Assembly (NCBI GenBank): GCA_032718475.1 | Contig: JAUCBJ010001693.1 | Span: forward strand, 1-64,000 | Reading direction: 5' to 3' | Origin: Nemertoderma westbladi | Lineage: Eukaryota > Animalia > Xenacoelomorpha | Length of the DNA stretch: 64,000 nt | Shown here: one piece after another, positions 3,848 through 63,710 of the stretch | Position numbering within the stretch: position 1 is the first letter of the stretch | How the letters are laid out: each line of letters opens with the position of its first letter | Translations under genes and position numbers: made by a program | Notes under the pieces: generated by a model | Told to the model about the DNA's origin: nothing | The model's database searches: none | What the model saw: only the letters and a program-made list of their open reading frames with translations

Positions 3848-4066
3848 ACCGTAGCTAACGCATAACGGTGTCGTTGGTGTCAGACATCCAGTAGTGCCAG
3901 AAACCATTACCGGTACGGTACACAGTACCGGTACCGGTACCGGTAGACCCACATACTGACATAGTGAGATAATACTGTAGTACGCGGACCCGGAATACTG
4001 GAATACAGCAGTACCGGTGCCCTGTACATTACTACATCAGTCGCTGGTCGGGCAATTAACAGATTA

Positions 4067-14800: not shown

Positions 14801-14951
14801 AAAGTAGTGTATCCCACTCCCGCTGATAGAATCCAGTCTCCCACACTGTGGGTCATACGCCGCGCTAGACTGGCTTCTACTGTGTTCACATTTAGTATGG
14901 ACTGTCAGGCATTATAAGACACATAAATTAGCAGGTTAAACTGCGCGAACA
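11842..14951 (+). mobile_element. Putative solo/orphan LTR of a divergent BEL/Pao-like family, expanded by an internal minisatellite
   Basis: Begins TGTAA and ends gcgcgaaCA (compare TGTAA...gcgcgtaCA of the LTRs at 51319 and 62356). The last ~550 bp share many colinear motifs with those LTRs. No TSD was found and the left end is tentative. Confidence 0.55.
11966..14375. repeat. 29-bp minisatellite, ~83 copies, with higher-order structure
   Basis: Unit gttgttgctacaacatctcgtctggacgt. The variant series recurs at 406 bp, i.e. 14 units (e.g. 12708 and 13114). Confidence 0.97.
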
Positions 14952-31900: not shown

Positions 31901-34900
31901 ACTGTATCATCGATAGCTTGGATCTGGGCCTCTGTAGAAACACAAGTAAGTTGTTAACTGTATCATCGATAGCTTGGATCTGGGTCTCTGTAGAAACACA
32001 AGTAAGTTGTTAACTGTATCATCGATAGCTTGGATCTGGGTCTCTGTAGAAACAAACACAAGTAAGTTGTTAACTGTATCATCGATAGCTTGGATCTGGG
32101 CCTCTGTAGAAACACAAGTAAGTTGTTAACTGTATCATCGATAGCTTGGATCTGGGTCTCTAGAAACACAAGTAAGTTGTTAACTGTATCATCGATAGCT
32201 TGGATCTGGGTCTCTGTAGAAACACAAGTAAGTTGTTAACTGTATCATCGATAGCTTGGATCTGGGCCTCTGTAGAAACACAAGTAAGTTGTTAACTGTA
32301 TCATCGATAACTTGGATCTGGGTCTCTGTAGAAACACAAGTAAGTTGTTAACTGTATCATCGATAGCTTGGATCTGGGTCTCTGTAGAAACACAAGTAAG
32401 TTGTTAACTGTATCATCGATAGCTTGGATCTGGGTCTCTGTAGAAACACAAGTAAGTTGTCAACGGTATCATCGATAGCTTGGATCTGGGTCTCTGTAGA
32501 AACACAAGTAAGTTGTTAACTGTATCATCGATAGCTCGGATCGTGTACTTCTCAAACAGACAGAGGAACAAATATCACCAGCAATGAAATTAACAATGTT
32601 TTTTATTTCAGTTATCGGTAATGTGATGGTTAGGGGACTTTCCGGAGGCGAAAAGAAAAGAGCAAATATAGCCAGCGAGTTGCTAACCAACCCTTCCTTG
32701 CTGCTTCTCGATGTGAGTTGGTTGGACAGTATATATTTATTATTAGAAGAGTATTAATTATTAATTAATACGATTTTTGAATTTCATTACATTTTCGTAT
32801 AATTTCAAAGGTTAATCAGGAAATCAGACCAGTTGAGTACCTCCCTCGACTTTTCCTGCAGTTAGTAGTAGTAGATAATCTCAGACAATTATTTAGTTTA
32901 TATATTAGGACTATTATTCGATAAAAAAAAAGTAAGCGCAAAACACCGATTTTTTCACTCATTTTCAATTTAGCGAAATTCAACTATTCTGTCCGAGTGG
33001 TTGAGTTTTACACGAGTTGGCAGTTTTTTGGAACGAGGAAAGCTAGTGTTAAAATGCCAACGAGTGGAAAACTCAACACACGAGGGCAGAATATCTCAAT
33101 TTTGCTGAAGAAAATGAGTGGAAAATAGTGTTTTCCGTTACATTTTTATATCGAATATATTGTTTTATTTGAAAAAAAGTATCACCAGCGTTATCACTGT
33201 GTCCTTGTCCTTGGATTTCTAAGGCATAAGTTGCCGGTGCTAGGAATTACCACAAAACACCCCAAAAGATACCAAAAGACCCAAAATAGTTCAAAAATAC
33301 TTAAAAAAACAGGTACCTGATCCGTTCCCTTACCAGCTTACAGTTAAGGTATTCCTGAACTGTTAGGTATTTTGCGGGGTAGGTATTTTGGTGTATTCTG
33401 GGGTATTTTAGGTAATTCGTAGGATCAAAATCTTCCGAAAAAAACGTTGCGTCAGCCTTCTCATTAAAATTGTGGATCACCTCCAGATCGTCAAGAAGGA
33501 TGTTATTACTGTATTAGGCCGATGGCCTACCATAGGTCCGGTACTTCTCGCTGCCATTCTGCTGGATGACCCTGGTCTAATTCAAATACCGGTATTATAA
33601 TAGTTGTACAGTAAACACAGTACCGGTACAAATGGTTTATTGACATATATCTAAGTCTGGTAATTCCTTTTTACCTTTTTACACATTGCAGTCTACACCC
33701 TCAGCCTGTCTGTACCTGTCATTATTCCGTACCGGTCCCGGTATAAACAATTTGGTTTCATTTTTTTATGTGTGAGCTGTATGATGAATTACATTTAAAA
33801 TAACTATTGACATACTTGTTGCAATAACTATTGACATACTTGTTGCAATAACTATTGACATACTTGTTGCAATAACTATTGACATACTTGTTGCAATAAC
33901 TATTTACATACTTGTTGCAATAACTATTGACATACTTGTTGCAATAACTATTGACATACTTGTTGCAATAACTATTTACATACTTGTTGCAATAACTATT
34001 TACATACTTGTTGCAATAACTATTTACATACTTGTTGCAATAACTATTTACATACTTGTTGCAATAACTATTTACATACTTGTTGCAATAACTATTTACA
34101 TACTTGTTGCAATAACTGTTGACATACTTGTTGCAATAACTATTTACATACTTGTTGCAATAACTATTTACATACTTGTTGTAATAACTATTTACATACT
34201 TGTTGCAATAACTATTTACATACTTGTTGCAATAACTATTTACATACTTGTTGCAATAACTATTTACATACTTGTTGCAATAACTATTTACATACTTGTT
34301 GCAATAACTATTGACATACTTGTTGCAATAACTATTTACATACTTGTTGCAATAACTATTGACATACTTGTTGCAATAACTATTGACATACTTGTTGCAA
34401 TAACTATTGACATACTTGTTGCAATAACTATTTACATACTTGTTGCAATAACTATTGACATACTTGTTGCAATAACTATTGACATACTTGTTGCAATAAC
34501 TATTTACATACTTGTTGCAATAACTATTTACATACTTGTTGCAATAACTATTTACATACTTGTTGCAATAACTATTTACATACTTGTTGCAATAACTATT
34601 TACATACTTGTTGCAATAACTATTGACATACTTGTTGCAATAACTATTTACATACTTGTTGCAATAACTATTGACATACTTGTTGCAATAACTATTGACA
34701 TACTTGTTGCAATAACTATTGGCATACTTGTTGCAATAACTATTGACATACTTGTTGCAATAACTATTGACATGCTTGTTGCAATAACTATTGACATACT
34801 TGTTGCAATAACTATTTACATACTTGTTGCAATAACTATTGACATACTTGTTGCAATAACTATTGACATACTTGTTGCAATAACTATTTACATACTTGTT

Positions 34901-37900
34901 GCAATAACTATTTACATACTTGTTGCAATAACTATTTACATACTTGTTGCAATAACTATTTACATACTTGTTGCAATAACTATTTACATACTTGTTGCAA
35001 TAACTATTTACATACTTGTTGCAATAACTATTTACATACTTGTTGCAATAACTATTGACATACTTGTTGCAATAACTATTTACATACTTGTTGCAATAAC
35101 TATTGACATACTTGTTGCAATAACTATTGACATACTTGTTGCAATAACTATTGACATACTTGTTACAATAACTATTGACATACTTGTTGCAATAACTATT
35201 GACATACTTGTTGCAATAACTATTGACATACTTGTTGCAATAACTATTTACATACTTGTTGCAATAACTATTGACATACTTGTTGCAATAACTATTGACA
35301 TACTTGTTGCAATAACTATTGACATACTTGTTGCAATAACTATTTACATACTTGTTGCAATAACTATTTACATACTTGTTGCAATAACTATTTACATACT
35401 TGTTGCAATAACTATTTACATACTTGTTGCAATAACTATTTACATACTTGTTGCAATAACTATTGACATACTTGTTGCAATAACTATTGACATACTTGTT
35501 GCAATAACTATTGACATACTTGTTGCAATAACTATTTACATACTTGTTGCAATAACTATTTACATACTTGTTGCAATAACTATTGACATACTTGTTGCAA
35601 TAACTATTTACATACTTGTTGCAATAACTATTTACATACTTGTTGCAATAACTATTTACATACTTGTTGCATTAACTATTTACATACTTGTTGCAATAAC
35701 TATTGACATACTTGTTGCAATAACTATTTACATACTTGTTGCAATAACTATTTACATACTTGTTGCTATAACTATTTACATACTTGTTGCAATAACTATT
35801 GACATACTTGTTGCAATAACTATTTACATACTTGTTGCAATAACTATTGACATACTTGTTGCAATAACTATTGACATACTTGTTGCAATAACTATTGACA
35901 TACTTGTTGCAATAACTATTGACATACTTGTTGCAATAACTATTGACATACTTGTTGCAATAACTATTTACATACTTGTTGCAATAACTATTGACATACT
36001 TGTTGCAATAACTATTGACATACTTGTTGCAATAACTATTTACATACTTGTTGCAATAACTATTTACATACTTGTTGCAATAACTATTGACATACTTGTT
36101 GCAATAACTATTGACATACTTGTTGCAATAACTATTGACATACTTGTTGCAATAACTATTGACATACTTGTTGCAATAACTATTTACATACTTGTTGCAA
36201 TAACTATTTACATACTTGTTGCAATAACTATTGACATACTTGTTGCAATAACTATTTACATACTTGTTGCAATAACTATTTACATACTTGTTGCAATAAC
36301 TATTTACATACTTGTTGCAATAACTATTTACATACTTGTTGCAATAACTATTGACATACTTGTTGCAATAACTATTGACATACTTGTTGCAATAACTATT
36401 GACATACTTGTTGCAATAACTATTTACATACTTGTTGCAATAACTATTTACATACTTGTTGCAATAACTATTGACATACTTGTTGCAATAACTATTTTCA
36501 TACTTGTTGCAATAACTATTTACATACTTGTTGCAATAACTATTTACATACTTGTTGCAATAACTATTTACATACTTGTTGCAATAACTATTTACATACT
36601 TGTTGCAATAACTATTTACATACTTGTTGCAATAACTATTTACATACTTGTTGCAATAACTATTTACATACTTGTTGCAATAACTATTTACAGTACTTGT
36701 TGCATACTTTGACAGCTGTGTTGCATACCTATTGTCATACTTGTTGCACTAACGTACGTTACATGACTTGTGTGCAATAACTATTTAGCCTACTTGTTGC
36801 AATCACTATTTACATACTTGTTGCAATAACTGTTTACATACTTGTGTGTAAAGTAGCACTTTACAGTGTGATGATCCGAGTGGCTTTGTTACACGAACGA
36901 ACGTTAGTGAGTGAGTGAAAATAAAGCCACGAGGATCAGAATACTGTAAAGTACTTTGCAACAAGTATGTATGTAGTTTTATTCCAAAATTGTAACATTA
37001 CGAAATGATTGTGTATATATTATAAGTGATAGAAACTGTACAAATTATATTAGTTGCTGTATAAATAAATGTAAAAATGACATAAATTATGTTATAAATA
37101 AGTTAGCTTATATTTATGGTGGCGTTTGGAGCCATGTTATAATAATATACCTAGGCCCTACCGGTTATTAATAGCTATACCCCGCCTACCGGTAGGTAAT
37201 GTAGTAGACCTATCTGGCTGTCACCCAAATTTCCACTTATTGTCCAATGACAATGAAATGAGTGGTATCCAATGACGGCGTTAAATGTCCCCTTAGTGCA
37301 CATTTACTTAACGTTGTCATGGGTTACCACGTAAACAATAACACGAAATACAATACTAAATGTACAGGCCAATACAATGCTGTAATATCCTCTAAAGTTG
37401 TAAAGTGCTAAATAACAACTCGATGTTAATACTAACGGCGTTGAGTAATGTTACAATTTTGGAATAAAAATATTTTTTAAAAATTTGTTTAAAAATATAT
37501 TTTTTTTTAATTTTCAAAAAATTAGTTAAAAAATTACTTTTTTAAACTAATTTTCCAAAAAATAGTTAAAAAATAGACTTTTTTAAACTAATTTTCGGGA
37601 AATTTGTGAAAAAATTAAGATTTAGAAAGAGCCCTTTTCAAATAAAAAGGCTCTTTTTCTCACTAATAATTTTAAAATTGAGTTAATTTATCTAACTTTT
37701 TTTCACTAATTTCCAGAAAATTAGTTAAAAAAGTCTTTTTTAACTAATTTTAGCTTACTGTACAGCTAGCTCAAAACAATATTCCGTCTGTACAGTAGTA
37801 AAGGTAGTACCGGTACTTGTACACGGTAACACAGTGGGCCTAGTACTGTACAATACTGCAGTACAATTTGAATACTGATATTGGTGATAGTGGATAGACC

Positions 37901-45559: not shown

Positions 45560-45860
45560 CTGGATATAGGGAATATGGAATGAAAATAATCCCGTTAACA
45601 GAATAAATACGCCTTTAATTTTTACAGGTATTGAAAATCACCCACCTAAATTATGTTGTATATTACATCCAATCAAGAACCTTTAATATAATTTAACCAA
45701 TGGACAACAGATTCTAGAATTTAATCTTCATATTATATAAATAACAAAAACGTCGATAAAACTTGTCATACGCAAAACACTAATGATTTAAGTTGCACAA
45801 AGTTTTATTAGGATAAATAAATAATAGAAACAGTACTGGTGATTAGGTTCCATTGCTGTG

Positions 45861-46277
45861 ATGGCTTACAATGAGAGTGAAAATGGCGTGTTGGGTGAGG
45901 ATGAGTTACTGAGTTGGGCCTTAGAGGAAGATAGAAAGAAGGATATTGTGAGTAGATCAACCAGCAGAAAAGATATGGAGAAACGGAGACGAAAGAAACG
46001 GAAGGGAAGTAAGAAGGGAAAGAAGAAGGGAAAGAAGAGCAGGTCTAGGAGTCGCCGAGGTAAAGGAAGTCGGTCTAGAAGTCGTAGAGGAAAGGGGAAG
46101 AAAGGAAAGAAGATGAAGGGAAGATCGAAAAGTCGGGGGAAGAAAGGAGTAGGGAAGTCTCGATCAAGGGGCCTTGGAAGAAGAGCCGATGGGAAAAGTC
46201 TTGCCAGTCAGGGAAAACTTGATCCTTGCAGCAAGTTTATGAAGAAGTTGGCAAAAGAGGATATGAAACTGAACTAA
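45861..46277 (+). CDS. Protamine-like / sperm nuclear basic protein candidate, copy 1 (138 aa, intronless)
   Basis: Acidic ~27-aa leader, then a K/R/S/G-rich body with SRSRSRRGKG repeats. CCAAT x2 and TATAAA upstream (45669-45742); AATAAA near 46486. Confidence 0.7.
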   Translation: MAYNESENGVLGEDELLSWALEEDRKKDIVSRSTSRKDMEKRRRKKRKGSKKGKKKGKKSRSRSRRGKGSRSRSRRGKGKKGKKMKGRSKSRGKKGVGKSRSRGLGRRADGKSLASQGKLDPCSKFMKKLAKEDMKLN

Positions 46278-46333
46278 TTAATCCTGTAAACTGATATTTT
46301 CCTGCCTCGCGGTCAACTATTTTATTGATAAAG

Positions 46334-46407
46334 CGTTACTAATAATATATTATTTAATGAATTAAGATTTTAATCTTAATTCATTAAATAATATATTCTT
46401 AGTAACG
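46334..46407. repeat. Near-perfect 74-bp AT-rich hairpin 3' of the protamine-like gene
   Basis: cgttactaataatatattatttaatgaattaagatt-tt-aatcttaattcattaaataatatattcttagtaacg. Confidence 0.85.
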
Positions 46408-47119: not shown

Positions 47120-50100
47120 CCGACCACGACGGAATGCCGTACCAATCGGTGAGCGGGTGAATTGACGTCATTCGCCTACCGTACCGACCAGGGGCGGACC
47201 CAAGGTTATTGGACATGGACACGGACATGTATCAATGTGGAACTCTGCGCCCCCGGTCCCAAATGCGCCCGTGGCCCCCGCCGCGGCCTCGAATGCGCCC
47301 GTGGCCCCCGCCGTGGCCCCGAATGCGCCCGTGGCCCCCGCCGCGGCCCCGAATGCGCCCGTGGCCCCTGCCGCGGCCCCGAATGCGCCCGTGGCCCCCG
47401 TCACGGCCCCGAATGCGCCCGTGGCCCCCGCCGCGGCCCCGAATGCGCCTGTGGCCCACGCCGCGGCCCCTAATGCGCCCGTGGCCCACGCCGCGGCCCC
47501 GAATGCGCCCATGGCCCCCGCCGCGGCCCCGAATGCGCCCGTGGCCCCCGCCGCGTCCCCGAATGCGCCCGTGGCCCCCGCCACGGCCCCGAATGCGCGC
47601 GTGGCCATTTCATGTAAAGGTTGCAGGAAAGTTTACCGTTACCCAGCTAGCCTTACAAAGCATCAGATTTTGTGTCCGCGGTTCAAAGCTGCTGATAACT
47701 TAGAACTGCTGTCACAGCTCCCTTTTTCCTTGCCAAATACACTGCCAAAAATAGGTGCTGATGCGAACAGCTTATCATTCATATCCTGGAACGTGGAGGG
47801 AGCAGAGACCACATTGGACACGACCATCGATGAAACTTTTACCAACACAGACGTTCTGTTACTCACTGAGACTTTTATGGAAGACCTCGTTATTGATGGG
47901 TATGCTTGCTACAATGTCCCTTGTGAAAAACAAGACCATGGCCGTCCAACGGGTGGTCTAACCATAGGAATCAACTCTCGGCTATCATTCGTGCATAAAT
48001 GTTTATTCTCTAGCCCGTCAATAATAGCCGTGCAATGCCCGAATTTCCATATTATTTTAGCTTATTTTAAACCTGTGACCGATGTAACCGAGATACTATT
48101 GGAGCTCAACGACGTGGTACAGTTGGTGTTGTTTAAAGCAAACATTCCCGTGATTTTAGCTGGCGATTTTAATTGCCGGATAGATGGCGACAGTACGCGT
48201 GGTGATCTGTTATGTGACTCTCTATTGGGTCTCAATCTCGTATCAATCTCAGACCCTAAATTGCCGACTTATATCTGTTGGAATGGAACTAGTGTTATCG
48301 ATCTTGTGTTTGCCAGTACCAATATCTTAGATTATATCAACACCGCAGTAATACATACAATCAATACTAAACACCAGCGCGTCAATATCAATCTATCAAT
48401 GGAACATATTAATTCTGTTGGAATTGGAACACGAGATAAACGCCCTGAGACAATCCGTAACATCGATACGGACAAACTAGGTGAATTACTCGACCCGGAA
48501 ATCTTTGCAAATGCATTGGCTGACAGTGTCGATTCGGCATGCAAACATGTATCCGATGCAATTACTCAGTCTGCAATAAACCGCCCACAAAGGAAATCAA
48601 AGCCATGGTTTAACAAATCCTGTTATAATCTTATGTCCCAGGTTAAACAACATCGTAGTTTAATAAACAGCGACTCATCGGATACCCAACTGGAAGCATA
48701 CAGAACCATTCAGAAGGAATATAAATCAACTATGAAAGCGAATAAAAAGTTATACTCAATACGGCGTGAGTCGAATATAATTAAACGTTGTGAATCAGAC
48801 CAAAAGGAATTCTGGAACATATTGAAAACTCGGAAAGAAACATCAGTGTCCCACCAGGTGACTAATGAGAGCTGGTTCAACCATTTCACATCTCTGCTTA
48901 CAAGACCAAATCCACCTCAGCTTCCTGAAGTCGATAATAACTATGAAGATTACCTTGATACCACAATAACGGGGGAAGAAGTAACTGCAGCTGTAGCAAG
49001 CCAGAAGTCGGGAAAGGCTGCTGGCCCAGACGGTATCACTAATGATATACTGAAAAAAGGGTTCGGCCATCTGTTCCCTTTTCTGTTCGCGTTATTCGCT
49101 GTATGCTTCTCGAAAGCAACCTGCCCTATAGCATGGCTAACCTCAATAATTATTCCATTGTATAAGGGAAAAGGCCCAAAGTCTTCGCCGGATGCATACC
49201 GCGGGATCGCACTGTTATCTTGTTTATTTAAAACGTATACCTCAATCCTATTCAAACGGTTATATACATGGGCCGAGACATATAATAAACTTCCAGACGA
49301 ACAGTATGGTTTCCGTACTGGCCGATCCACATTAGACGCTGTACGCAAATTATACAGTTACATATCTAACTCATTGCCATCGGGTAGTCCAGTGTATTGT
49401 GTCTTTGTGGATTTCACAAAGGCATTCGACTCTGTTAACAGGGTCAAATTAGCCTATAAATTATCCAAACTTGGAGTAAGTCGAATATTTATCTCAGCAA
49501 TATGGGCTTTAATAGCTACAAACTGCATTCGCATTTGTGTAGGATTGTATCTATCAGACCCAATTTTTCAGATGATCGGTGTAATACAAGGTGACAAGTT
49601 GTCGCCGCTACTTTTTAGCTTGTTCATTGCTGACCTGCCTCTAGTTCTGACCGGTATTGGTATTGGTCTACTCCTTTATGCCGATGACCTAGCTATCTAT
49701 GGAAATTCGATTAATTCGGTGCAAAAAACTTTAGACAAACTCTACAAATATTGTGATGAAAATGACTTACATGTAAATTTGTCCAAAACTAAGGTAGTGA
49801 AGTTCCGCCGTGGTGGACGCTTGTCAAAGCAAGATAAACTTTTTTATAACAACAAATCATTGGAATTTATTAACAATTTTAATTACTTAGGAGTAGTGTT
49901 TACAACTACAAACAAATCATCAGGCCATTACAAACACTTATATAAACGTGGTGTTGCCTCGTGCATGCGACTAGCCTGCATAGTTGATATGCATTCGATA
50001 TCGTACCCCTCTGCTCAAAAATTATGGTCCCTGGTGGTGTTTCCCGCTGTTACCTACGGCATATCTGTATTCCAGAACTTAACAAAGGAACAACAGAAAC

Positions 50101-50703
50101 AATTAGAACACGTAATAAAGGTGCGCGGTTTTTTCTGGAAAATTTGGTGTGGAGTAGCGAAATATGCGTCCACTACAAAGATTTTAGAAGCTGTTGATAA
50201 CCCAAACAGCACATCAATCTCATTGGCCAACTTAGCTGGGAACAGGCGCCGCATAGCGGCACAGTTCCTATCTAATGGGTTTCACCACAAAGTCTGCCAA
50301 GAGGGGAGATGCTGGAGACCAAAAGATAAATGTGTCTGTCGTCTCTGTAAAGAGCCAGCAAAAGATGTTGCCCACACTTTGGTTTGTGAAGCTATACCAA
50401 ATCCCCAAACCCCACTGGAACTTGCCTTTTACCTGCAAAAGCTCGATTGACCATTTTACCGACATTTTATGTGCATTAATTTTTACCAAATTTAACTTAG
50501 CCAAAATATATAATAAAATATTAACTAAATGGTATTTATTTCTAACATAGTATATTTTATGCGTGTACTGATTAATTTGTATATTAGTGCTAAAAATTAT
50601 GTCCTCAATTAACTGTATGTATTATTTTATATTTATTGTGTATTTTATTAATATCTATATCCTCTTACGTCCAATCTGGATATTACACGTCTTATGAATT
50701 ATC
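47120..50703 (+). mobile_element. Apparently full-length single-ORF LINE (APE-RT), intact
   Basis: 11-bp TSD gattctagaat (47109-47119, 50704-50714). The empty site is present in the paralogous unit at 45710-45720. No poly-A tail. Confidence 0.95.
47235..50450 (+). CDS. LINE polyprotein: Ala/Pro repeat, C2HC finger, APE endonuclease, reverse transcriptase, Cys-rich C-terminus (1071 aa)
   Basis: SWNVEG, LTET, GDFN, SVIDL (APE); [32 protein letters not shown] (RT); CKGC-x12-H-x3-C; terminal CVCRLC..H...C. Confidence 0.95.
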
Positions 50704-50855
50704 GATTCTAGAATTTAATCTTCATATTATATAAATAACAAAAACGTCGATAAAACTTGTCATACGCAAAACACTAATGATTAAAGTTGCAACAAATTTT
50801 TATTAGGATAAATAAATAATAGAAACAGTACTGGTGATTAGGTTCCAGTGCTGTG

Positions 50856-51224
50856 ATGGCTTACAATGAGAGTGAAAATGGCGCGTTGGGTGAGGATGAG
50901 TTACTGAGTTGGGCCTTAGAGGAAGATAGAAAGAAGGATATTGTGAGTAGATCAACCAGCAGGAAATATATGGCGAAACGGAGACGAAAGAAACGGAAGG
51001 GAAGTAAGAAGGGAAAGAAGAGCAGGTCTAGGAGTCGCCGAGGTAAAGGAAGTCGGTCTAGAAGTCGTAGAGGAAAGGGGAAAAAAGGAAAGACGATGAA
51101 GGGAAGATCGAAAAGTCGGGGGAAGAAAGGAGTAGGGAAGTCCCGATCAAGGGGCCTTGGAAGAAGAGCCGATGGGAAAAGTCTTGCCTGTCAGGGAAAA
51201 CTTGACCTTGCAGCAAGTTTATGA
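50856..51224 (+). pseudogene. Protamine-like gene, copy 2 (probably disabled)
   Basis: Near-identical to copy 1, but with a 12-bp deletion, a 1-nt deletion near the end (cttgaccttg vs cttgatccttg), a LINE in the promoter and an LTR element in the 3' flank. Confidence 0.65.
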
Positions 51225-51318
51225 AGAAGTTGGTAAAGGAGGAGATGAAACAGAACTACTATCTGAAAAAAAAATTTGTTGATTTGTTGAACTAATTAAT
51301 CCTGTAAACTGATATTTT

Positions 51319-52589
51319 TGTAAAATCTTCTGTGGGATATAACTGGCCCCTTTTGCTTCGCAATCCAGTTTCCCCCCAGGCGCTGGAATACTCTAAAAGG
51401 CTCTCTAACTATATATATATTCCCCTCGCCCGTAAGGTACCGTTATAGGTGTTTTAACGGACATAAAAGTCATTCTTCTATATACGTGTTTTGGCGGACA
51501 TGGTAAGGCAAAAAACCTGCAATGCACCAAATACCTTTACACAGCTTAGCCTTGATGATTCAGATTACGACATCTAACAGCTGGTTGCTGACATGGAAAC
51601 GGCCATTGGACACATGGTTCTTTGTTTAGCTTAAGCCAATCAGAGCGATTTTTTCTGTCGATGTGGAGCTTTTCGGCCGATCATACTAGGAGTGTTCAGT
51701 CTTACTGTTTTTGTGATACTGTTGTGTTGTTGCTATCTAGGCCAGGAACACCGGCTCTAGAGTCAACTCGTTTTCATACTTTAGAAGAAACATTAGTAGG
51801 CTTAAGATTATAGAGCGTATAACTGTTATCAGTTCAGTCCAGTCCATATCATATATCACATATCATAACTTGTCATATCATATCTTGACCTACCGTCTTA
51901 ATGTTTTACTGTTGTCATATTTTGTATTAGTTGGTTGAATATTATTTGGAGAACATTTATAAAGAACCCAAATTTCCCAATTTTCTTGATACACTACAGG
52001 TTAGAGAGACGGGTTATATATAGCGATTGCGACTTATATTATTGTGGTTTGTAGTGAATTTAATGCTATTTGATAAGCACTACATGAATCCGTTGCTGTT
52101 CTCTTTATATATGATAAAATTCATTGACGGTCGGCAAATTAGTGAGCAGTATTGTGTGTTACCGGTAGTGTGCATGATTGTGACTGATAACTAAGCATTT
52201 CCTAAAGAATGCGCCTCATACGTGAATCATAAGCCTTACCGACTTACCGTTGTGATTAGTATAAGTCATATCTCTGTTTACCTAGATAGAGCGCCACGTC
52301 CTAAAGGAACTGTTAATATTTCCCGAAAGTGAATAATATTAGTCAGAAATTATTTATTAACGATCAATCGAATAATACAGTAAGCTTACACTGCAATAAT
52401 AATCTAAGCCCTCAGAATCCAGTCTCCCGGGTATATCCAGCGGGTGAATGGACGCGCACTAGGCTGGCTTCTGCTAATGTTGTGTTTATTGGTATTAAAT
52501 ATTTGTCAACTTCTAAAGTCTATTTGTAAACCAAAAGACATATAAATTTTGGCAGGTTAAACTGCTAAAGGTCTTCAAAAGCGCGTACA
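51319..52589 (+). repeat. 5' LTR
   Basis: Direct repeat of 62356-63626; I could see only ~4 substitutions. Confidence 0.97.
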
Positions 52590-54834
52590 ATAACAGTTAT
52601 AGTCTTTATTGCAGTAAGCAATAAAGTTGAAAGTACCGGTCGACCGGTAAACCTGAACCGGTACTTCTGTAGGTCAGTAGGCCCAACTGCCAGAACCGGT
52701 ACTGCTGTAGGTCCGTAGGTCCAACTGCCAGAACCGGTACTTCTGTAGGTCTGTAGGCCCAACCATCCTAACCGGTACTTCCAGTATAAGTACATTAGTA
52801 TTATTCGATTTTGATTATTGTATACCGGTAGGTCTCGATATTAAATCGGGGACGCCTGGTTTTTATTGGGATTTTACTTAGGTCCATTTCTGTCAGTTTT
52901 ATTTCCTAGTAAGTTAATATTGAGCTGAAGACGTGTAAGTCTGCTCAGATTGTTCAGATAACTGTAGGCCGGACTGTTGTCGGATTGTTGTTGGGTTTGG
53001 AGAGATTACTGCGTGTGTAGAGTTTGTCCGATAGAGTGCCAGTTAGTAAGTTGGGGCAGCCATAGCTGTAAGGTCAATCCCCTCTTAAAGAATAAGTCGT
53101 ACTACCGTGTTAGAACGCATACTAACTAACCATTTTGGAATCTGCACATACTGTAGTTTATTTAGGCTTGACAGTATTCTGCCAGCGTTTTGGCCTGTGT
53201 TTGTTTGTGTGGTCTGTTCAGGTACCGTAATAGTTATTACTCAGATATTTTGTAGGCTGGATTGTTGTCTAGCTATTATTAGGTCTGAAGAGATTGCTGC
53301 GTGTGTAGAGTTTGTCTGATAAAGTGCCAGTTAGTAAGTTGGGGCAGCCATAGCTGTAAGGTCAATCCCCTCTTAAAGAATAAGTCGTACTACCGTGTTA
53401 GAACGCATACTAACTAACCATTTTGGAATCTGCACATACTGTAGTTTATTTAGGCTTGGTGGTAGTCTGCCAGCGTTTGGTTTGTATTTTGTTTGAGTAG
53501 TCTGTACACGTAGCGTAATATTTATTATTCAGAGTTTATGCGATTATTCGCAACATTCATGTCCCCAAGTTTATTCCTACAGTAATTGTGCTTGTTACAC
53601 ATACCGTTATAGTTAAATTAACCCCGGTACTACACGGGCTGCTTGGCGTAGGAAAAGACTGGTGACTTTGTGCTTCGGTCACTCCAGCAGATGCCGTGGT
53701 TCTTTTAACTGTTCAAGTATATTTAACTACTGATTATTTGTTGTACCAGTACTTGTACCTAATTTAGGGTTTAGTGTACAGTGCTTTCCGAAAGTAATTA
53801 GTGTGTAGGCAGTATATTTGTGTTGTAAAGTGGTTAATAGGCACGTTGGATCTGGTAGTCCGCGGTAATTAACTTCTAGGTAGGAACACTCCGTGATACA
53901 TAACGTAGTACCTATAGCGATACGGCTATAGGTCGTCAGGCGGTGGTATTTTCCTATCTGGACAGTGCAATATATTTACTACTACTTATTATTTTCAAAT
54001 ACCGTAGTACCCTGTCCGTTGTAATAACCAGAAATCTAACCCTTTGTTAGACTGGTTTGTAGACTTCCTGTAAAATTACCCTAAAAATTTCGTACGTAAT
54101 ATTTTGTTGTGTTTAATTAGAGATTTAATCTCACCCATATCGTAAGTAATTTGTAGTATTAAGTAACTTAGGTAAATTAGAATTATCTGTTTTAGTGTCC
54201 CATAAGTAGCACTTCACTGAGAGCGCACAGCTTCTGTGTAGTGACTTCCCCAGAAATAATAACATCTATTTCAATATTGTAACAAAAACCCTTTTTAACG
54301 GGTATATATCTATTATAAATCAACTCAAACGATTTATAAATAGTAGGCCTGCCATACAACAACTAGGTCTCAATATCAGTTGGACTACTGCTTAAATAAC
54401 GGTAATAAAGTAAGTTAAAGTAACCAAGTAACCCTAAAATATTCAGAAATTCAATTATTCTAAAATAATTGACATACCGGTATTTACCATAGGCTTATTA
54501 TATTTATTTCTATAAATTTGTGCTGAAATCATACCGGTATTCTGTAATTAATTCTAGTCTGTAATAATTATACTTATATATACTATAAGTGTCAGCTGTA
54601 TACCGGTATTCACGATAGGCCTATTATATATTTATATATATTTGTGCTAAAATTATATACCGGTACTCTGTGACAAATCTAGTCTGTAATAATACTTATA
54701 TATATACTATAAGTGTATACCGGTATTCTAATATACTGTAATAAATTACCGGTACTAGGCCAACGGTCATACTGAATTACTAGACTTGCTTTAACTGTAT
54801 TTATAGCCGTAGGCATTCAACTGTGTAAACAAAC

Positions 54835-57800
54835 ATGTCAGACGCAACCAAATCACTGTCAGATAGTCTCTTAGAAAGTGTTAGAATGAGTATTAGACAT
54901 AGGCAGCGTATTAAAAGGATCTGTGACCAAGATCCAAGTATAGAACATCCTAGATCCAAGTCTAAGTCACCTACTATTGTAAGAAAGGCCATCCCTACAG
55001 TAGTAGTGTCAGACCCTAGGCTAGTAGAACAGCGTAGGTCTATCATCGGCACTCGGGCCCAAGTCAAGCGGGATCAAGAAGCAGCTATCAAACAGCAGCA
55101 ACCTCCTAGCCAAAAACCTAGTTCTCAGCAGCCCGATAGCTCCAGTAGTTTGGATACTGTTGAGCGGACACCCGAACGCGGAGAGAAGATGGCGGATACG
55201 GTTTATGATGAGCGGCCAACCTATGAAGAATCAACCGACGCCACTTCTTCTCAAGTGGAAAGCGAAGTGGAAAGCGAAGTGGAAAGCGAATTAACAGCAG
55301 CAGAGAAGCCGCGAACTAGAGACGCCATTGACATATATCTGTCAGACTATCAGCGATTCCTAGGAGACGAAGAGTTGAGGAGACGACTGTCTGGACTTCG
55401 CCCTAATAGTGAAGGAACCAAGCTTGTGTTGGACGCAATCGATGCGGAAATGTTAGCTGCGAACCAAACTAAATTCGATGAACAACTCCGCATCACTAGA
55501 GTCCAAGAAGAACAAGTAAAGAAAAAAGCGATAGAAGACAGAAAGAAAGCGGCAGTGGCAGCAGCAGCGGCAAAGGCGGCAGCGGAAGAGGCAAAAGCGG
55601 CAGTGGCAGTGGAAGTGGCAGCAGCAGTGGCAAAAGCGGCAGCGGCAGTGGAAGCAGCAAAAGCAGCAGCAGCAATAGCATTGGCAGAAGCAGAACAGAG
55701 AGCGTCTGAAGAGACCACCCAACTGGAGTTGGAAAATCTTCAAGAGACGCAAGACTGCATAAATAAACAGTTAACTGCTAATCAAATGCAGATGATGAGT
55801 CGATCTACTCCCAAACGCCAAGGATACACATCATCGGAGGAAGGCGAAACCACCGATCCTGAAGGCGGAGGAAATAGATCTCGTCTAAGCAGGCGTAGAA
55901 AAGCATCTCACCGTCACAAATTGCCTGATTTGCCCCCAGCTGTTAGAAGACAACTAGCTAACACAGACTTAGGTAGTTCAGAACCCACAGACCAAATTGT
56001 TAAGGTCAAAAGACTCCCTACGATACTCGATGAGTCTGAAATAATTAGGCCTGTCGTTCCCAAAGCCACTCCTGTGCTAGAGACCCCTGTACTTACAGAG
56101 CTTAACTCTAAATTCCCTTTACACAGTACTACACTGCCTGTACCCGGTAGAACAGTCCATGAGAATATCCCTGTCCTGGACGCTGAGAGAGAAATCAAAG
56201 ATTTGTCTCCCGTCGTCCCGCGTCTGCCCGCTACAATGTTGGCGACTCCCGCTTCGGCGGTCGAGTGGGTAGAGGAGGGACGGCGGGGGATGAATCTCCT
56301 GCTCGGACAGATGCAGGAGACTGTCCACCAACTCAAGGGAACATTAAGGGAAAGTAGGGTAGAATTGCAAGAAGTGCAGCAAAGTATCGCGCTAGAACGC
56401 GACAAATTAGTCAATATACAAAAGGGTATACCAATACCCCCTGTAACATTGTGTCAACCTGTTAGGTCTGAAGTATTACATGCGCAAGGTGTGGAGCCTA
56501 CACGCATCTATACTGCTAGTGAAGTAGAAACTCCTATAGCAAACCCTATTAAGGGTGATTATGAACCTGTTGTTAATGATATTCCCTATAGACCTGATAA
56601 TAATCCGAGAAATTTATATACCGATAATTCGATATTAAATAATACGATGGCCCAAGAAAGCTTTACGCGTCAGATGGCTAGAACAGAAGCCCGCCAAGCG
56701 GTCAAAGTGGGAGAAATCGTCAAATTCAATGGAGATGAGATGAAATGGTTACCTTTCAATGAATATTACAAAGATAGCATACAGAACTCTGTACTATCTA
56801 ACGGAGAGAAACTTAGGTTCCTCATCAAGTGCTTAGAAGGACCTCCCAAGTTAATGGCGTTAAAGTTTATTGGACATCCAGAAGGATTAAGACAAGTTTG
56901 GGATACATTAAACATCAGGTATGGTAACAAGGATAACATAGCTAAGTATTTGTATGCAAAATTAGTAGCCCCCCGAAACTTCCTTAGTAGCGGGATTATA
57001 GAGTTTTCCGATGAGATTCAGGAGATCTGTAGACAATTGGACTGGTTAGGTAAGTCTCATGAATATCAGAGTTCCATGGTTATTGGAGCAGTAGTCTCTA
57101 CTTTACCAAAGGGTGGAGTATGTACACGCTGGGACAAGAAAGTGTTGTACATGAATGAACAACAACGACGAAGCCCTACCATGGCTGATCTCATGTCCTT
57201 TTTAGATAGTAAAGTAAAATTACAACTCATAAAGCAGTCCAGAGAGAAAACATCGGAAAATAAGGTAAGTGAGAAACCCGTTTCTAGGAGAAGGATAATA
57301 CCAGTGTGTTATACTGACGACGGCGAAAGCCAAGCTTCTCAAGAAGAGGACAGCGGGAAAGACACAGCAAAATCTTACTATGACAACAAGACCTATAAAG
57401 ACGTAAGTAAATACAAGTCTCGAACCAGTAACAGGAGAGAACAGGTAACAACAACTCCTCCTACGTCTCCTAAGAGAATTCACGGAAGAAAGCCCGAAGA
57501 AAGAACGAGAGTGCATAACGTTACCCAAGGTAAAGTGAGTAACATCAAACCAAAATGTGCGCTGTGCGACGGGCCCCACCGTTTGAGTGCGTGTGCTGAA
57601 TTTCTAAAGAAATCCCTTGTAGACAGACGTACAGTCCTGTGGAATAAGCGGTTATGCTATAATTGCCTCAGATCAGGACACCAACGGCGAACCTGTTACT
57701 CCGACGTAAAGTGTGCAAAGTGTGGCGCGAAACATCACATCTTGTTACACAGTGAGTTCGAACGAAACAACCCGAGTCAGGTAAGTGAGCCCGAACTACA

Positions 57801-58989
57801 TGTCCAGTTCAGTGATGTAAATGACACTGATCAAGAATCTGAGATGGAAGGATTCTATACTGACGAATTCTCCGACGCCAACGAATCCTGTTACTTAATA
57901 AATACCGCAGTGTATCGAGCACTTACGCATGAAAAGGACACCGAAAATGAGTTCCCCCCAACTACCTTTGACAGACAACCATCTTGGAAAGCTCCAACTT
58001 CCAATGTAGGAATCAGAGAATTTCCTGTAGTGCAGGTAAGAGTTCACGGTCCTAACAACAGTTACATAGTGAACGCCCTCCTTGACTCCGGCAGCACAGG
58101 AACATTCATCGATCAAGAACTAGCCAAAGATATCTTTGCTGGACAACCCAAATTCCGGACTAAATTGAATATATCAGGAATTATGCAGGTTTGGAAATCT
58201 ACCCTAACGGCAGACTACTATGTAGGTGTGTTGTCCACCCCCCAGGATAAGTTAGGAGCACAAGGTATAAGGTCGGTAAAAATGGTGGCTATAAAGAACT
58301 TCGCTACTACTCAAGCAGACCTTTATAATTGGGACGAGGATGAGAGCATCCAACATCTTAAGATACCTCGATTCCAGACAGATTATCCTGGAGTGCAAAT
58401 ACTCATCGGCCAAAACGCGCATGAAGCGCTCGAGACATTGGAGAAATGGCCTGCTCAACCGCAGCCATTACAAACCTATGCGGTAAGAACTAGAGTAGGT
58501 TGGTACTTCACTGGCCCTTCCCGTAGAACTCTCAAAGAGAGATTACCTCAACAACAGGTATACCAAGTAAAGGAATGGGAAGTGGAGAGCAGTGATGTGG
58601 ACGATCCAACTGAGGGAACACCATACTCCTCAGATAATGACGATATTAACTCCAATGTAGATCAATGGAGACATTGCCTTGGGACGATTAATCCAGCCGA
58701 CATCGCTTCCAGAGGAGCAACTCCTCAAAAACTGATAGATACTCCAGGCTGGTTAGGTGGATCCGACTTCTTAAGTAAAGAAGAAGAAGAATGGCCTCCT
58801 CATCTTACCCCGGCGGAGATTAGACAGGCCAAGGGAGCGGAGAAAGTAACACAACAACTCAATCGCCCAGCTAGTCGTTTATGTTTACTGGAAAGAGACC
58901 AAAAACTGTCCGGAAACTATGGAAGGCAAGATACTCTTCCTACGACCACTTCCCTAATCCGACAAATATCTAGGGACTCCATAACGTAA
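54835..58989 (+). CDS. BEL/Pao Gag-protease fused to an RNase H C-terminal remnant (1384 aa); RT and integrase absent
   Basis: KFNGDEMKW..F (DUF1759-like); CALCDGPH..C, CYNCLRSGH..C and CAKCGAKHHILLH; ALLDSGS protease; then directly QWRHCLGTINPADIASRG..W.GG.DFL...EEWP. Confidence 0.92.
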   Translation: MSDATKSLSDSLLESVRMSIRHRQRIKRICDQDPSIEHPRSKSKSPTIVRKAIPTVVVSDPRLVEQRRSIIGTRAQVKRDQEAAIKQQQPPSQKPSSQQPDSSSSLDTVERTPERGEKMADTVYDERPTYEESTDATSSQVESEVESEVESELTAAEKPRTRDAIDIYLSDYQRFLGDEELRRRLSGLRPNSEGTKLVLDAIDAEMLAANQTKFDEQLRITRVQEEQVKKKAIEDRKKAAVAAAAAKAAAEEAKAAVAVEVAAAVAKAAAAVEAAKAAAAIALAEAEQRASEETTQLELENLQETQDCINKQLTANQMQMMSRSTPKRQGYTSSEEGETTDPEGGGNRSRLSRRRKASHRHKLPDLPPAVRRQLANTDLGSSEPTDQIVKVKRLPTILDESEIIRPVVPKATPVLETPVLTELNSKFPLHSTTLPVPGRTVHENIPVLDAEREIKDLSPVVPRLPATMLATPASAVEWVEEGRRGMNLLLGQMQETVHQLKGTLRESRVELQEVQQSIALERDKLVNIQKGIPIPPVTLCQPVRSEVLHAQGVEPTRIYTASEVETPIANPIKGDYEPVVNDIPYRPDNNPRNLYTDNSILNNTMAQESFTRQMARTEARQAVKVGEIVKFNGDEMKWLPFNEYYKDSIQNSVLSNGEKLRFLIKCLEGPPKLMALKFIGHPEGLRQVWDTLNIRYGNKDNIAKYLYAKLVAPRNFLSSGIIEFSDEIQEICRQLDWLGKSHEYQSSMVIGAVVSTLPKGGVCTRWDKKVLYMNEQQRRSPTMADLMSFLDSKVKLQLIKQSREKTSENKVSEKPVSRRRIIPVCYTDDGESQASQEEDSGKDTAKSYYDNKTYKDVSKYKSRTSNRREQVTTTPPTSPKRIHGRKPEERTRVHNVTQGKVSNIKPKCALCDGPHRLSACAEFLKKSLVDRRTVLWNKRLCYNCLRSGHQRRTCYSDVKCAKCGAKHHILLHSEFERNNPSQVSEPELHVQFSDVNDTDQESEMEGFYTDEFSDANESCYLINTAVYRALTHEKDTENEFPPTTFDRQPSWKAPTSNVGIREFPVVQVRVHGPNNSYIVNALLDSGSTGTFIDQELAKDIFAGQPKFRTKLNISGIMQVWKSTLTADYYVGVLSTPQDKLGAQGIRSVKMVAIKNFATTQADLYNWDEDESIQHLKIPRFQTDYPGVQILIGQNAHEALETLEKWPAQPQPLQTYAVRTRVGWYFTGPSRRTLKERLPQQQVYQVKEWEVESSDVDDPTEGTPYSSDNDDINSNVDQWRHCLGTINPADIASRGATPQKLIDTPGWLGGSDFLSKEEEEWPPHLTPAEIRQAKGAEKVTQQLNRPASRLCLLERDQKLSGNYGRQDTLPTTTSLIRQISRDSIT

Positions 58990-60818
58990 TAACATATGGA
59001 GTGGGCGTGTGACTATATCATTTTATATTTGTTTTTATTTTATATTTATGTATGTATTATTATGTAATTTTATTATAATCGTTTTCTTTAATTTTATTTA
59101 GTAGAATGTTCTTTTAGTGATTATTTAGTAGATTAGTGCAATATATTAGTGTTTATTACGTACGTAATTACTTATAATATATATTTAGTGCGACGGCGAG
59201 AAATAATTATTTTTTCTCTTTCCTTACTGTCCGTATCATATTATAAATACGTGACTACAGTAAGATGAAATGTCCGTACTTATTAAAGTACAATAAAGCT
59301 CCTACTATACTTAAGTATTATTGGTAGGCAGAGTATTAGGAATGCAAAGTTCAGATCCTCGTGTCTCGGCTAAACCAAGCTCTGGGTAGACCTTGGAAAC
59401 GACTTGCCTCTTCACACTGACATTGCTTCGTGCGATATTGCTCTTCTACCTTATATTAAATAATACATATAGTAGCGTGATGTCCCTCTAACAGTAGCGT
59501 AAACGCAAATAATCGTTTTCTTTAATTTTATTTAGTAGAATGTTCTTTTAGTGATTATTTAGTAGATTAGTGCAATATATTAGTGTTTATTACGTACGTA
59601 ATTACTTATAATATATATTTAGTGCGACGGCGAGAAATAATTATTTTTTCACTTTCCTTACTGTCCGTATCATATTATAAATACGTGACTACAGTAAGAT
59701 GAAATGTCCGTACTTATTACTTAGGAATAAACCTTTTGACCATCTGTAATTCTAGTCGATTAAGATATCGCGGCACCCACCGATATACTTGAAAGACAAA
59801 TTCTAGAATCAGTGATTAACGTCCCCAGACAAGTTCTGGAATAAATCGGTGCCCATCTTAAATATTAATTTAATATTTATTAAAATCTGTAAAATTCAGA
59901 TCCTTTAAAATTTCTAGTCAATTAAGATATCGCAGCACTTACCGATACTCTTAAAAGACAATTTTATAGAATTAAGGATCCTAAGTCCCCAGACATACTC
60001 TGGAATAAAAATTGTGTCAATTTTAACATCAAATAATAAAATTCATGGGAATAAATTTAAATTCATATTTTAAATGAATTTCATAAATTGTCATTTTGTG
60101 CAATTTGTAACATTCCCAAAATTCCATTAATTAATAGATCACGGGAGCGGAGATTCATCCTATTGAGTGTATTAGAGTGCGAGAATCTCCAACATATAGT
60201 CAATAGCCGATAAAATTAATAAAATCATACATAAAGAGGATATTGACAATTAAAGAATTATTATTAAATAGCATCCCAGATCTGTATGCATGAGAATTAC
60301 CCTAATTCTACCGCTAGCATTCCATAATGTCACCATAGCAACACCCACGCTAGAATTAGAAGCAAGTTAAGAGAACAATAGAAAGCTTGTCACATTGCAT
60401 AGCATAGAGAATACATAGCACACTGTTAGTATCCAAGGATACACAGTAATAACGTGACATTCTGGAAGGCACTGACTAACGGACAAATGGCCTGTATGTG
60501 TACAATTGGTGACAGTTGTGTGGAATTTGTGCGTTTGTAGGTGAATGTTACTGCTAAGGTGTGTTTACAGTAGCTAGTCGCAATTGTGAAAGTAGCCCAA
60601 CTCTCCTATAGAAAGAACCTAAAGTGGATTCAAGCCTTTGGGACGGACAGTGGAGTGACTTGTGCCGGTTATCGTTGTCGTGATGTTGCTACATGTTGGC
60701 GTAAACACCGCGACGACGGTACATCGGCGCTGAGAATCCCACTGTCCGGGGCGAAGAGAGGTAGGCAGCGACGCCCGCTCGCCTAAACATAAACTCATTA
60801 CAATATTAATAAACTCAA

Positions 60819-62277
60819 ATGGCAGATATGACGGAGTTGATAGAAGATGATCTTGGTATCAGGGAGCGATATACTCTACCTTTACAAGCATTTGTGGATA
60901 GCTTGATACGCGATGAAGCCGATCCAACCATTACGGAGGACGGTGGTCGTTGTATCGAACCGCCGATGTCCCAAGAGCAACTTACGCGTGAATTGGACTG
61001 TCGGGAGTTCGCCGCTCGCTATACGCATCGTGATGGTACGTATATGGACTTCCTAACTACCGGCCATCCTATCGATTTACCTGATACGGACGATGTAGAC
61101 ACCGAAAGGGAAATGGTTCTATTTAAATATCATACCCAGCGGAGTCGTAACGATAAACCGAAAATAGATCACGAAAATTCTATTCGTAACAGACTGGGAA
61201 GACGAACCAATATGCCTAGAATCTGAGGAGATTCAGCCTATCGCGCCCGGAACAGCGACAACGATTACATCCTAGAATGGTATCAAGGTCCACAGTGTCT
61301 CACTGCGTACGATTATCGCCATGCCAACTATGTTTCTCGGCAACGTTGTCGGTTATGCGCATCGAGAGACCATGTTACGCCCATGGACACAAACGTCCGT
61401 TGTTCCTATTTCCACGAACAACCGGCGATGGAAATTTATTGCGCGTATTGCAGGCTCAATAACTTGCACATTTTTGCAGTTTGCCCTCAATTTATGACTC
61501 AATGGCAACATTGTCAACTAAAGGGACGCGCCAGTTTCGATTGCCCTTTTTAATCACGATTTGGAAAGCCTAGATGAAATGATCACACTACGTTACATCA
61601 GAGCTTGGGAAGCGAACGCTGATTTACATTGTGATTCGCGCCATCGCTATTATCCTGGACGCGCTTACGAAGGAGTTTATGCGTTCCATCCTTATCTATT
61701 CGCTTCGGTTGAACAGAAATCACGCATATCAAGTTACGAGCTACTGAAGCGCGTCGGAGAATGTATTTCAACCAAATTCGTACGCAAATTTCTCAGGAGT
61801 GTTAATCCTAGCGACCTTCATTCCTATAACTTAATCAATTATATCCGTCAGGATCCGGACTATGGAGACTTGTTTGTTAACTCACACCCCGAGTTACAGG
61901 AAGTATATCGACGGCCTTACGAATACCGAGCCCGCGAACGCGAGTTGGAAAGAACCATTAAACCCTGGAGGTTTCTAACTGCCTATGGTCCACCCACGGC
62001 CCTCGTTCAGACCACTCGTAAAGGACCCGTAAGAGCGGCTGTCTTGAAACGAGCTCTCAAAGCCGTTAGAACCCTCTCACCTGACGTTGATGTCAATCAA
62101 CCCGGTACTTCGACTGGCAGATACACCGACCATAATCCTACACCCTCTGATGCAATCATATTGCACCCTTCACCCAGGAGTTATAGCCCTCCTTGTAAAG
62201 TGGCTCGCCCCAAAGAGAAAAGGACTCTGGCTAGCTTTAAAAAACTGCGTAAACGCCGTCCGCGCAAGAAAGACTAA
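60819..62277 (+). pseudogene. Accessory ORF of the LTR element (~485 aa ancestral), Zn-finger protein, disrupted
   Basis: The frame of 60819 continues through one TGA (61224-61226) into CRLC..H..C..CAYC..H..AVCP..C.LKG. A 1-nt frameshift at the T run (~61547-61551) then joins ORF 61561-62277. Basic C-terminal tail. Confidence 0.8.
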
Positions 62278-62355
62278 CTGTTTAGAGTATTTACGTATAT
62301 TAGAAACTGTGATTTTGTATATTTTATAGACTCAAATCCCATTTTCTGGGAGCGG

Positions 62356-63626
62356 TGTAAAAGCTTCTGTGGGATATAACTGGCCCCTTTTGCTTCGCAA
62401 TCCAGTTTCCCCCCAGGCGCTGGAATACTCTAAAAGGCTCTCTAACTATATATATATTCCCCTCGCCCGCAAGGTACCGTTATAGGTGTTTTAACGGACA
62501 TAAAAGTCATTCTTCTATATACGTGTTTTGGCGGACATGGTAAGGCAAAAAACCTGCAATGCACCAAATACCTTTACACAGCTTAGCCTTGATGATTCAG
62601 ATTACGACATCTAACAGCTGGTTGCTGACATGGAAACGGCCATTGGACACATGGTTCTTTGTTTAGCTTAAGCCAATCAGAGCGATTTTTTCTGTTGATG
62701 TGGAGCTTTTCGGCCGATCATACTAGGAGTGTTCAGTCTTACTGTTTTTGTGATACTGTTGTGTTGTTGCTATCTAGGCCAGGAACACCGGCTCTAGAGT
62801 CAACTCGTTTTCATACTTTAGAAGAAACATTAGTAGGCTTAAGATTATAGAGCGTATAACTGTTATCAGTTCAGTCCAGTCCCTATCATATATCACATAT
62901 CATAACTTGTCATATCATATCTTGACCTACCGTCTTAATGTTTTACTGTTGTCATATTTTGTATTAGTTGGTTGAATATTATTTGGAGAACATTTATAAA
63001 GAACCCAAATTTCCCAATTTTCTTGATACACTACAGGTTAGAGAGACGGGTTATATATAGCGATTGCGACTTATATTATTGTGGTTTGTAGTGAATTTAA
63101 TGCTATTTGATAAGCACTACATGAATCCGTTGCTGTTCTCTTTATATATGATAAAATTCATTGACGGTCGGCAAATTAGTGAGCAGTATTGTGTGTTACC
63201 GGTAGTGTGCATGATTGTGACTGATAACTAAGCATTTCCTAAAGAATGCGCCTCATACGTGAATCATAAGCCTTACCGACTTACCGTTGTGATTAGTATA
63301 AGTCATATCTCTGTTTACCTAGATAGAGCGCCACGTCCTAAAGGAACTGTTAATATTTCCCGAAAGTGAATAATATTAGTCAGAAATTATTTATTAACGA
63401 TCAATCGAATAATACAGTAAGCTTACACTGCAATAATAATCTAAGCCCTCAGAATCCAGTCTCCCGGGTATATCCAGCGGGTGAATGGACGCGCACTAGG
63501 CTGGCTTCTGCTAATGTTGTGTTTATTGGTATTAAATATTTGTCAACTTCTAAAGTCTATTTGTAAACCAAAAGACATATAAATTTTGGCAGGTTAAACT
63601 GCTAAAGGTCTTCAAAAGCGCGTACA
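62356..63626 (+). repeat. 3' LTR
   Basis: Direct repeat of 51319-52589. Confidence 0.97.
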
Positions 63627-63710
63627 ATTTTCCTGCCTCGCGGTCAACTATTTTATCGATAAAGCGTTACTAAGAATATATTATTTAATGAATTAAGATT
63701 TTAATCTTAA

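Follow-up and report, generated by a model that had tools for sequence, protein, structure and literature searches.

A recent, pol-deleted BEL/Pao LTR retrotransposon of 12.3 kb in Nemertoderma westbladi probably takes the primer for reverse transcription from its own RNA in a Tf1-like manner, using the LTR block 51818–51829 on a site at 52590–52601 directly behind the 5' LTR, a reading to which we assign a probability of about 0.7. The observations behind it are the missing TGG site, a 12-nt complement in register with the LTR end, conservation within the family up to the block and a like signature in distant elements. The element is located on contig JAUCBJ010001693.1 of assembly GCA_032718475.1, and positions 1–64,000 of its forward strand, the whole stretch of 64,000 nucleotides that was analysed, are called the window; the parts of the element and the sibling LTR fragment described below lie on the plus strand.

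Structure and age of the element

The 5' LTR (51319–52589) and the 3' LTR (62356–63626) are two copies of a 1271-nt sequence with TG...CA ends that differ from each other at four positions. Both are flanked by the 5-nt target-site duplication ATTTT (51314–51318 and 63627–63631), and an empty target site is found at 46296–46300 inside a paralogous repeat. The second LTR, the duplication and the empty site together fix the LTR end at 52589 beyond doubt and mark the insertion as recent. A purine-rich tract (62348–62355) is located directly before the 3' LTR. The gag-protease frame (54835–58989) is open, encodes 1384 aa with a DUF1759 domain (E 3e-12) and Cys-His knuckles and is fused to a short late-pol segment; its protein matches are BEL/Pao-type polyproteins in 52 of 52 cases (best E 3.5e-22). 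A tblastn search with these 52 relatives recovered only gag, protease and the short late-pol segment from the element, and the copy, which thus lacks RT, integrase and most of RNase H, is a non-autonomous derivative that depends on helper enzymes.

Accessory reading frames belonging to no known family (60819–62277) precede the 3' LTR, and for the last of them a search of the Atlas brought no usable match. An accessory frame at 61227–61553 and an orphan frame elsewhere in the window (3968–5134) have a Cys/His motif in common (13 of 40 positions identical, pairwise E 7e-6), and the orphan frame is perhaps the relic of a related element. The non-coding parts of the element contain internal duplications at 52954–53533, 54474–54728, 59075–59719 and 59750–60009.

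The missing tRNA site and a complement within the LTR

According to the ICTV profile of 2021, Belpaoviridae are primed by a host tRNA, either tRNA-Arg or tRNA-Gly, at a site of 18 nt (PMC8742986). Such a site for the 3' end of either tRNA is absent from the element, as no TGG occurs between the LTR and position 52857, in agreement with the first-pass annotation of this DNA, which had already noted that no TGG-starting primer-binding site follows the 5' LTR. ARAGORN detected no tRNA genes in the window, and the three Rfam matches over 51200–54900 were all at chance level.

Instead, we propose a non-tRNA primer-binding site at 52590–52601, a sequence present once in the window and flush with the LTR end. 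Its perfect 12-nt complement at 51818–51829, repeated in the 3' LTR at 62855–62866, is the candidate 3' end of a self-primer and lies 760 nt upstream, its register matching the LTR end to the nucleotide. Shuffling of the LTR gave a perfect 12-nt complement at offset 0 in 11 of 20000 cases, and in 24 of 20000 if offsets of 0–4 were allowed. The block is also the best LTR partner of the first 18 nt of the leader (−15.5 kcal/mol; 2 of 150 shuffles). On one side the pairing ends exactly at the LTR boundary, and on the other, upstream of the block, it can continue through a 2×2 loop into six more pairs between 51810–51815 and 52604–52609, with a total of −18.8 kcal/mol. The published self-primer screen of Neumann et al., as described in the available text of PMC6317226, accepts complements of at least 10 nt starting 0–5 nt after the LTR, and the element falls within this range with 12 nt at offset 0. 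The earlier proposal of tRNA-independent self-priming is thus supported in its general idea by the flush 12-nt complement; its named partner, the U5 motif 52534–52545, has to be replaced by the better partner 51818–51829, which had been overlooked.

In the proposed mechanism the block would pair with the site and be cleaved behind 51829 by RNase H provided in trans, and from the 3' end released in this way minus-strand DNA would be extended, beginning precisely at the LTR boundary; we infer both the presence of the block in the transcript and the cut behind it. The primer may be a Tf1-like 5'-terminal 11–12-mer, or it may be formed by the 3' end of a capped RNA piece of greater length with its start near 51445. 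Two other candidates were rejected: a spliced extension of the element's own primer was not found over 44 candidate junctions, and for a primer ending at a polyadenylation site none of the five hexamers scanned occurs within 40 nt upstream of 51829.

The first 11 nt of the site form an interrupted palindrome, and the block is therefore also a 10/11 direct copy of the site. Together with a self-dimer energy of −6.4 kcal/mol this would fit site and block being repeats of one palindromic signal, for protein binding or dimerisation, that is neither primer nor site. We judge such a signal very unlikely, as the inverted reading fits at 12 of 12 positions and is followed by six more pairs, whereas the direct reading does not extend, and the element would be left without any primer.

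Pairing between LTR and leader

All letters quoted in the first-pass annotation are present where it had placed them, and its perfect 13-nt complementarity between the LTR (52366–52378) and the leader (52798–52810) also exceeds chance near the junction. Among LTR shuffles a 13-nt match was reached in 14 of 2000 if compared with the first 320 nt of the leader and in 128 of 2000 if compared with all 2.2 kb of it. The energy of the duplex was equalled by one of 150 shuffles, and its pair probability is 0.90. The LTR arm is identical in a diverged sibling LTR fragment (14382–14951), which aligns to 51949–52589 only and holds neither the primer block nor the primer site. Being 200 nt away from the LTR end, this pairing cannot set the end of U5 and is better read as a scaffold than as a primer; we infer that it would leave the site unpaired. 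In a fold of 51818–52640 the primer duplex has a pair probability of 0.96. In folds reaching 52950 its probability drops to 0.00, the site 52590–52601 is mostly unpaired and 51825–51834 pairs with 52182–52191 instead. The loss is explained by the crossing of the primer duplex with the 13-bp duplex, as nested folding cannot hold both.

The remaining pairings named earlier did not perform as well. The U5 motif 52534–52545 and 52597–52607 are indeed complementary with one bulge, and the first-pass annotation had this pairing prime reverse transcription or switch the RNA conformation. However, it is weak with −6.5 kcal/mol and near chance, such a match being present in 75 of 1000 shuffles, its probability is 0.00 in all five folds, and it begins 7 nt from the LTR end. 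Moreover, the motif had been called conserved but differs by one letter in the sibling fragment, and it overlaps the hexamer TATAAA (52541–52546), which is located 44 nt before the LTR end; AATAAA is absent from the LTR. We read this hexamer as a likely polyadenylation signal rather than a primer, and priming or switching through the U5 motif seems extremely improbable. Two weaker complements reported at about 52848 and 52886 are at chance level (130 and 39 of 150 shuffles, respectively). A conformational switch through U5-leader pairing would be possible around 52604–52615 but is unsupported: the LTR arm 52390–52399, a 10-nt complement of 52606–52615 and candidate for a third duplex, competes with a hairpin at 52604–52626, has a probability of 0.08, costs 3.9 kcal/mol when forced and was matched in energy by 18 of 150 shuffles. 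A 6-bp stem at the LTR end (52452–52457 with 52581–52586) forms in four of five folds.

The LTR hairpins 52415–52470 and 52552–52565 are kept in the sibling fragment. A common fold of element and sibling contains changes on both sides in 16 of 85 pairs, which with two sequences only is too thin a basis for conclusions.

RNA start and variation within the family

A TATA-like box at 51410–51419, recognised by its motif only, is a candidate promoter with a putative start near 51445, and a motif scan suggested a candidate GT-AG intron in the LTR (51503–51784) that ends 33 nt before the primer block. A start at 51818/51819 would by analogy give a Tf1-like primer of 11–12 nt, while a start near 51445 together with the donor at 51503 and the acceptor at 51784 would allow a spliced primer of about 100 nt.

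The stretch is present in at least six runs from four studies, one of which may be the window's own sample; among the seven runs listed all records are contigs and none is RNA, which has no bearing on expression. The junction of LTR and leader is covered by contigs from four runs, representing no more than three samples, in an alignment on 51250–53050, with two diverged family contigs spanning the LTR end into the leader. The family contigs of the four runs match through 51831 and mostly end by 51840. The summed depth in X1 on 51780–51870, which is not copy number, amounts to 81000 at 51828–51831, 7200 at 51836–51839 and 2300 behind, and in X2 and X3 it falls likewise behind 51831. Among the best 19 of 36 loose ends in the same region 12 start at 51830–51841 and are A/C-rich, and the 12 indels listed out of 14 are all found at 51804–51815 and 51837–51851, none of them inside the block. 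Judged by depth, loose ends and indels, family members thus agree as far as the predicted cut and diverge beyond it. Among the contig joints listed, 3 of 15 leave at 51831. No substitutions were reported at 1% on 51780–51870 by a table that may under-report, as contigs carry up to four other letters at positions that the table does not give; on 51250–53050 the 40 substitutions listed out of 241 spare block and site, a weak indication. No compensatory change of block and site was seen among the family contigs of the four runs, and a two-motif LTR pattern gave no matches in metagenome, viral and genome contigs. The A/C-rich tract of short duplications at 51830–51870 is thus hypervariable in the family and starts at the predicted cut, which makes it a testable mark of the end of the strong-stop DNA.

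A similarity that ends at the block fits self-priming, and it also fits a promoter ending at a start near 51831. In this main rival the block would be a core-promoter element present only in U3 at the RNA 3' end, and block and 13-nt arm would circularise the genome with the leader or give a 3'-derived primer. Initiator-like motifs begin at 51829 (TCAGTT) and 51834 (TCAGTC), the former allowing a start that would exclude the block from the RNA 5' end, family conservation stops at this very place, and every arm required for circularisation is present in both LTRs. However, the pairing stops exactly at the LTR end, a register that circularisation would not require. In addition, the family letters vary behind 51830, the TATA-like box and the GT-AG pair are located upstream of the block, and four distant elements (see below) have no complement unless they are spliced, a pointer to an RNA with an upstream start. 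On balance we consider the core-promoter explanation unlikely and prefer self-priming.

Distant BEL/Pao elements

For a wider comparison we used a BEL/Pao alignment search, which gave 79 metagenome loci and no relative among viral contigs. At least 200 nt of upstream sequence were available for 46 loci, and the end of the 5' LTR was set by hand in 28 of them, with the other 18 left out; seven ends were defined by two diverging copies and the rest by a terminal repeat or by a CA preceding the TGG site, and two of the ends are uncertain. Self-complements of 10–15 nt, contiguous or spliced, were found in six of the eleven elements without TGG vs none of the 17 with TGG. The Fisher p is 0.0012 and changes to 0.018 if kin are collapsed by eye or to 0.016 if three weak TGG calls are moved; in this comparison many loci had incomplete LTRs, and fewer junctions were available in the TGG elements. 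Two elements without TGG have 11 contiguous complementary nt (2 and 1 of 1000 shuffles). In four others the complement spans a GT-AG junction of the LTR and does not occur unspliced (L017 15 nt, L016 11 nt, L079 11 nt and L070 10 nt; 0 of 500 shuffles each), as judged by a splice test that was written after three of its cases had been seen by eye. In L003, a close relative of L016, the complement is unbroken. The sites of the elements without TGG differ in their letters, each following its own LTR. A complement of 11–12 nt in L022 proved to be chance once the LTR end was placed at the TGG site.

These data also bear on the idea that a host RNA (a tRNA half, an edited tRNA or another small RNA) primes at 52590 and that the LTR complement is incidental. 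Priming by half-tRNAs without TGG is known in copia lineages, as reported in the accessible part of PMC6317226. However, chance seldom yields a 12-nt complement in register, 0 of 17 TGG elements have one, and the sites of the elements without TGG differ mutually and follow their own LTRs. We judge a host RNA distinctly improbable.

Because of the spliced distant relatives, an internal primer that is not 5'-terminal is plausible for the window element too. Extending this, self-priming might be a widespread, undescribed mode of BEL/Pao elements with the 3' end of a longer capped and spliced 5' fragment as primer; some lineages would pair via an exon junction, and the family in the window, possibly of separate origin, would use an unbroken block 33 nt behind its candidate LTR intron. 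We put this forward only tentatively and consider it somewhat more likely to be wrong than right. In a protein tree of the 35 loci with an unbroken frame of at least 1200 aa the window element forms a long branch of uncertain placement near the TGG elements, not joined to the group without TGG, and therefore the tree gives no support to a common origin.

In L003 (122–180) and L011 (753–800) the letters right behind the block differ between the LTR copies and the block is identical, and L003, like the window element, has a short tandem repeat behind the block. L077, whose LTR end is uncertain and which was counted as negative, contains a 17-nt duplex with one bulge (55–85 with 6850–6880, −23.6 kcal/mol) between its putative site and the LTR. 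The TGG-type element L057 has a strong LTR-leader duplex just behind its site (127–150, −25.3 kcal/mol), showing that pairing of LTR and leader also occurs outside self-primed elements.

Comparison with known systems

In Tf1 the RNA's initial 11 bases are paired with the site, and RNase H cleaves between bases 11 and 12, as stated in the available text of PMC7175516. Like Tf1/Tf2, Tj1 and other Tf1/sushi elements (Ty3/gypsy chromoviruses), the element lacks a tRNA site, has a flush site that complements an LTR block of 11–12 nt and has candidate flanking LTR-leader duplexes; the five letters with which the site begins are the ones reported for Tf1 (PMC11042837, accessible part). In contrast to Tf1, the loop between primer and site measures 760 nt here, and the primer as RNA 5' end is only a candidate. 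The accessible part of PMC10085805 describes a three-duplex ‘pretzel’ structure for Tf1, which to our reading also implies a crossing arrangement of duplexes. Its counterpart is partly supported in the element: the 6-bp stem at the LTR end forms, whereas the downstream 10-bp duplex has a probability of 0.08. Although the element likely works like Tf1, it is no member of Tf1/sushi, as gag and protease are of BEL/Pao type and chromodomain and pol are absent. With Belpaoviridae (PMC8742986) it shares LTRs with TG...CA ends, the target duplication, the purine tract, a DUF1759 gag and the protease; it differs in the absent tRNA-Arg/tRNA-Gly site and in this copy's missing RT, integrase and most of RNase H.

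From such a sequence signature self-priming has been predicted for the plant lineages Tcn1 (gypsy) and TAR/Houba/Osr-1 (copia), as described in the text available of PMC6317226. These belong to other superfamilies and show the same signature as the element, and BEL/Pao would be the third superfamily with this trait. No report of self-priming in BEL/Pao was found in the literature covered, including the accessible parts of PMC3601003 and PMC2864245, with most subscription papers, supplements, Repbase and GyDB notes outside its scope; a term search in the available text of PMC554778 and PMC3118150 revealed no passage on PBS or tRNA. If true, a self-primed branch would bring the mechanism of Tf1 into a third LTR superfamily, in a group described as tRNA-primed. 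It might also confer freedom from the host tRNA supply and from tRNA-fragment silencing, and annotation pipelines demanding a tRNA site would misjudge such elements.

Surroundings of the element

The element is inserted in the second copy (50704–51318) of a repeat with a lysine/arginine-rich frame, whose first copy is located at 45710–46379. The two copies flank a LINE frame (47166–50450) that looks intact and contains endonuclease and RT. Large tandem arrays with units of about 58, 56 and 72 nt are found at 11972–14375, from 24575 onward and at 33800–36845, respectively, the first of which adjoins the sibling LTR fragment.
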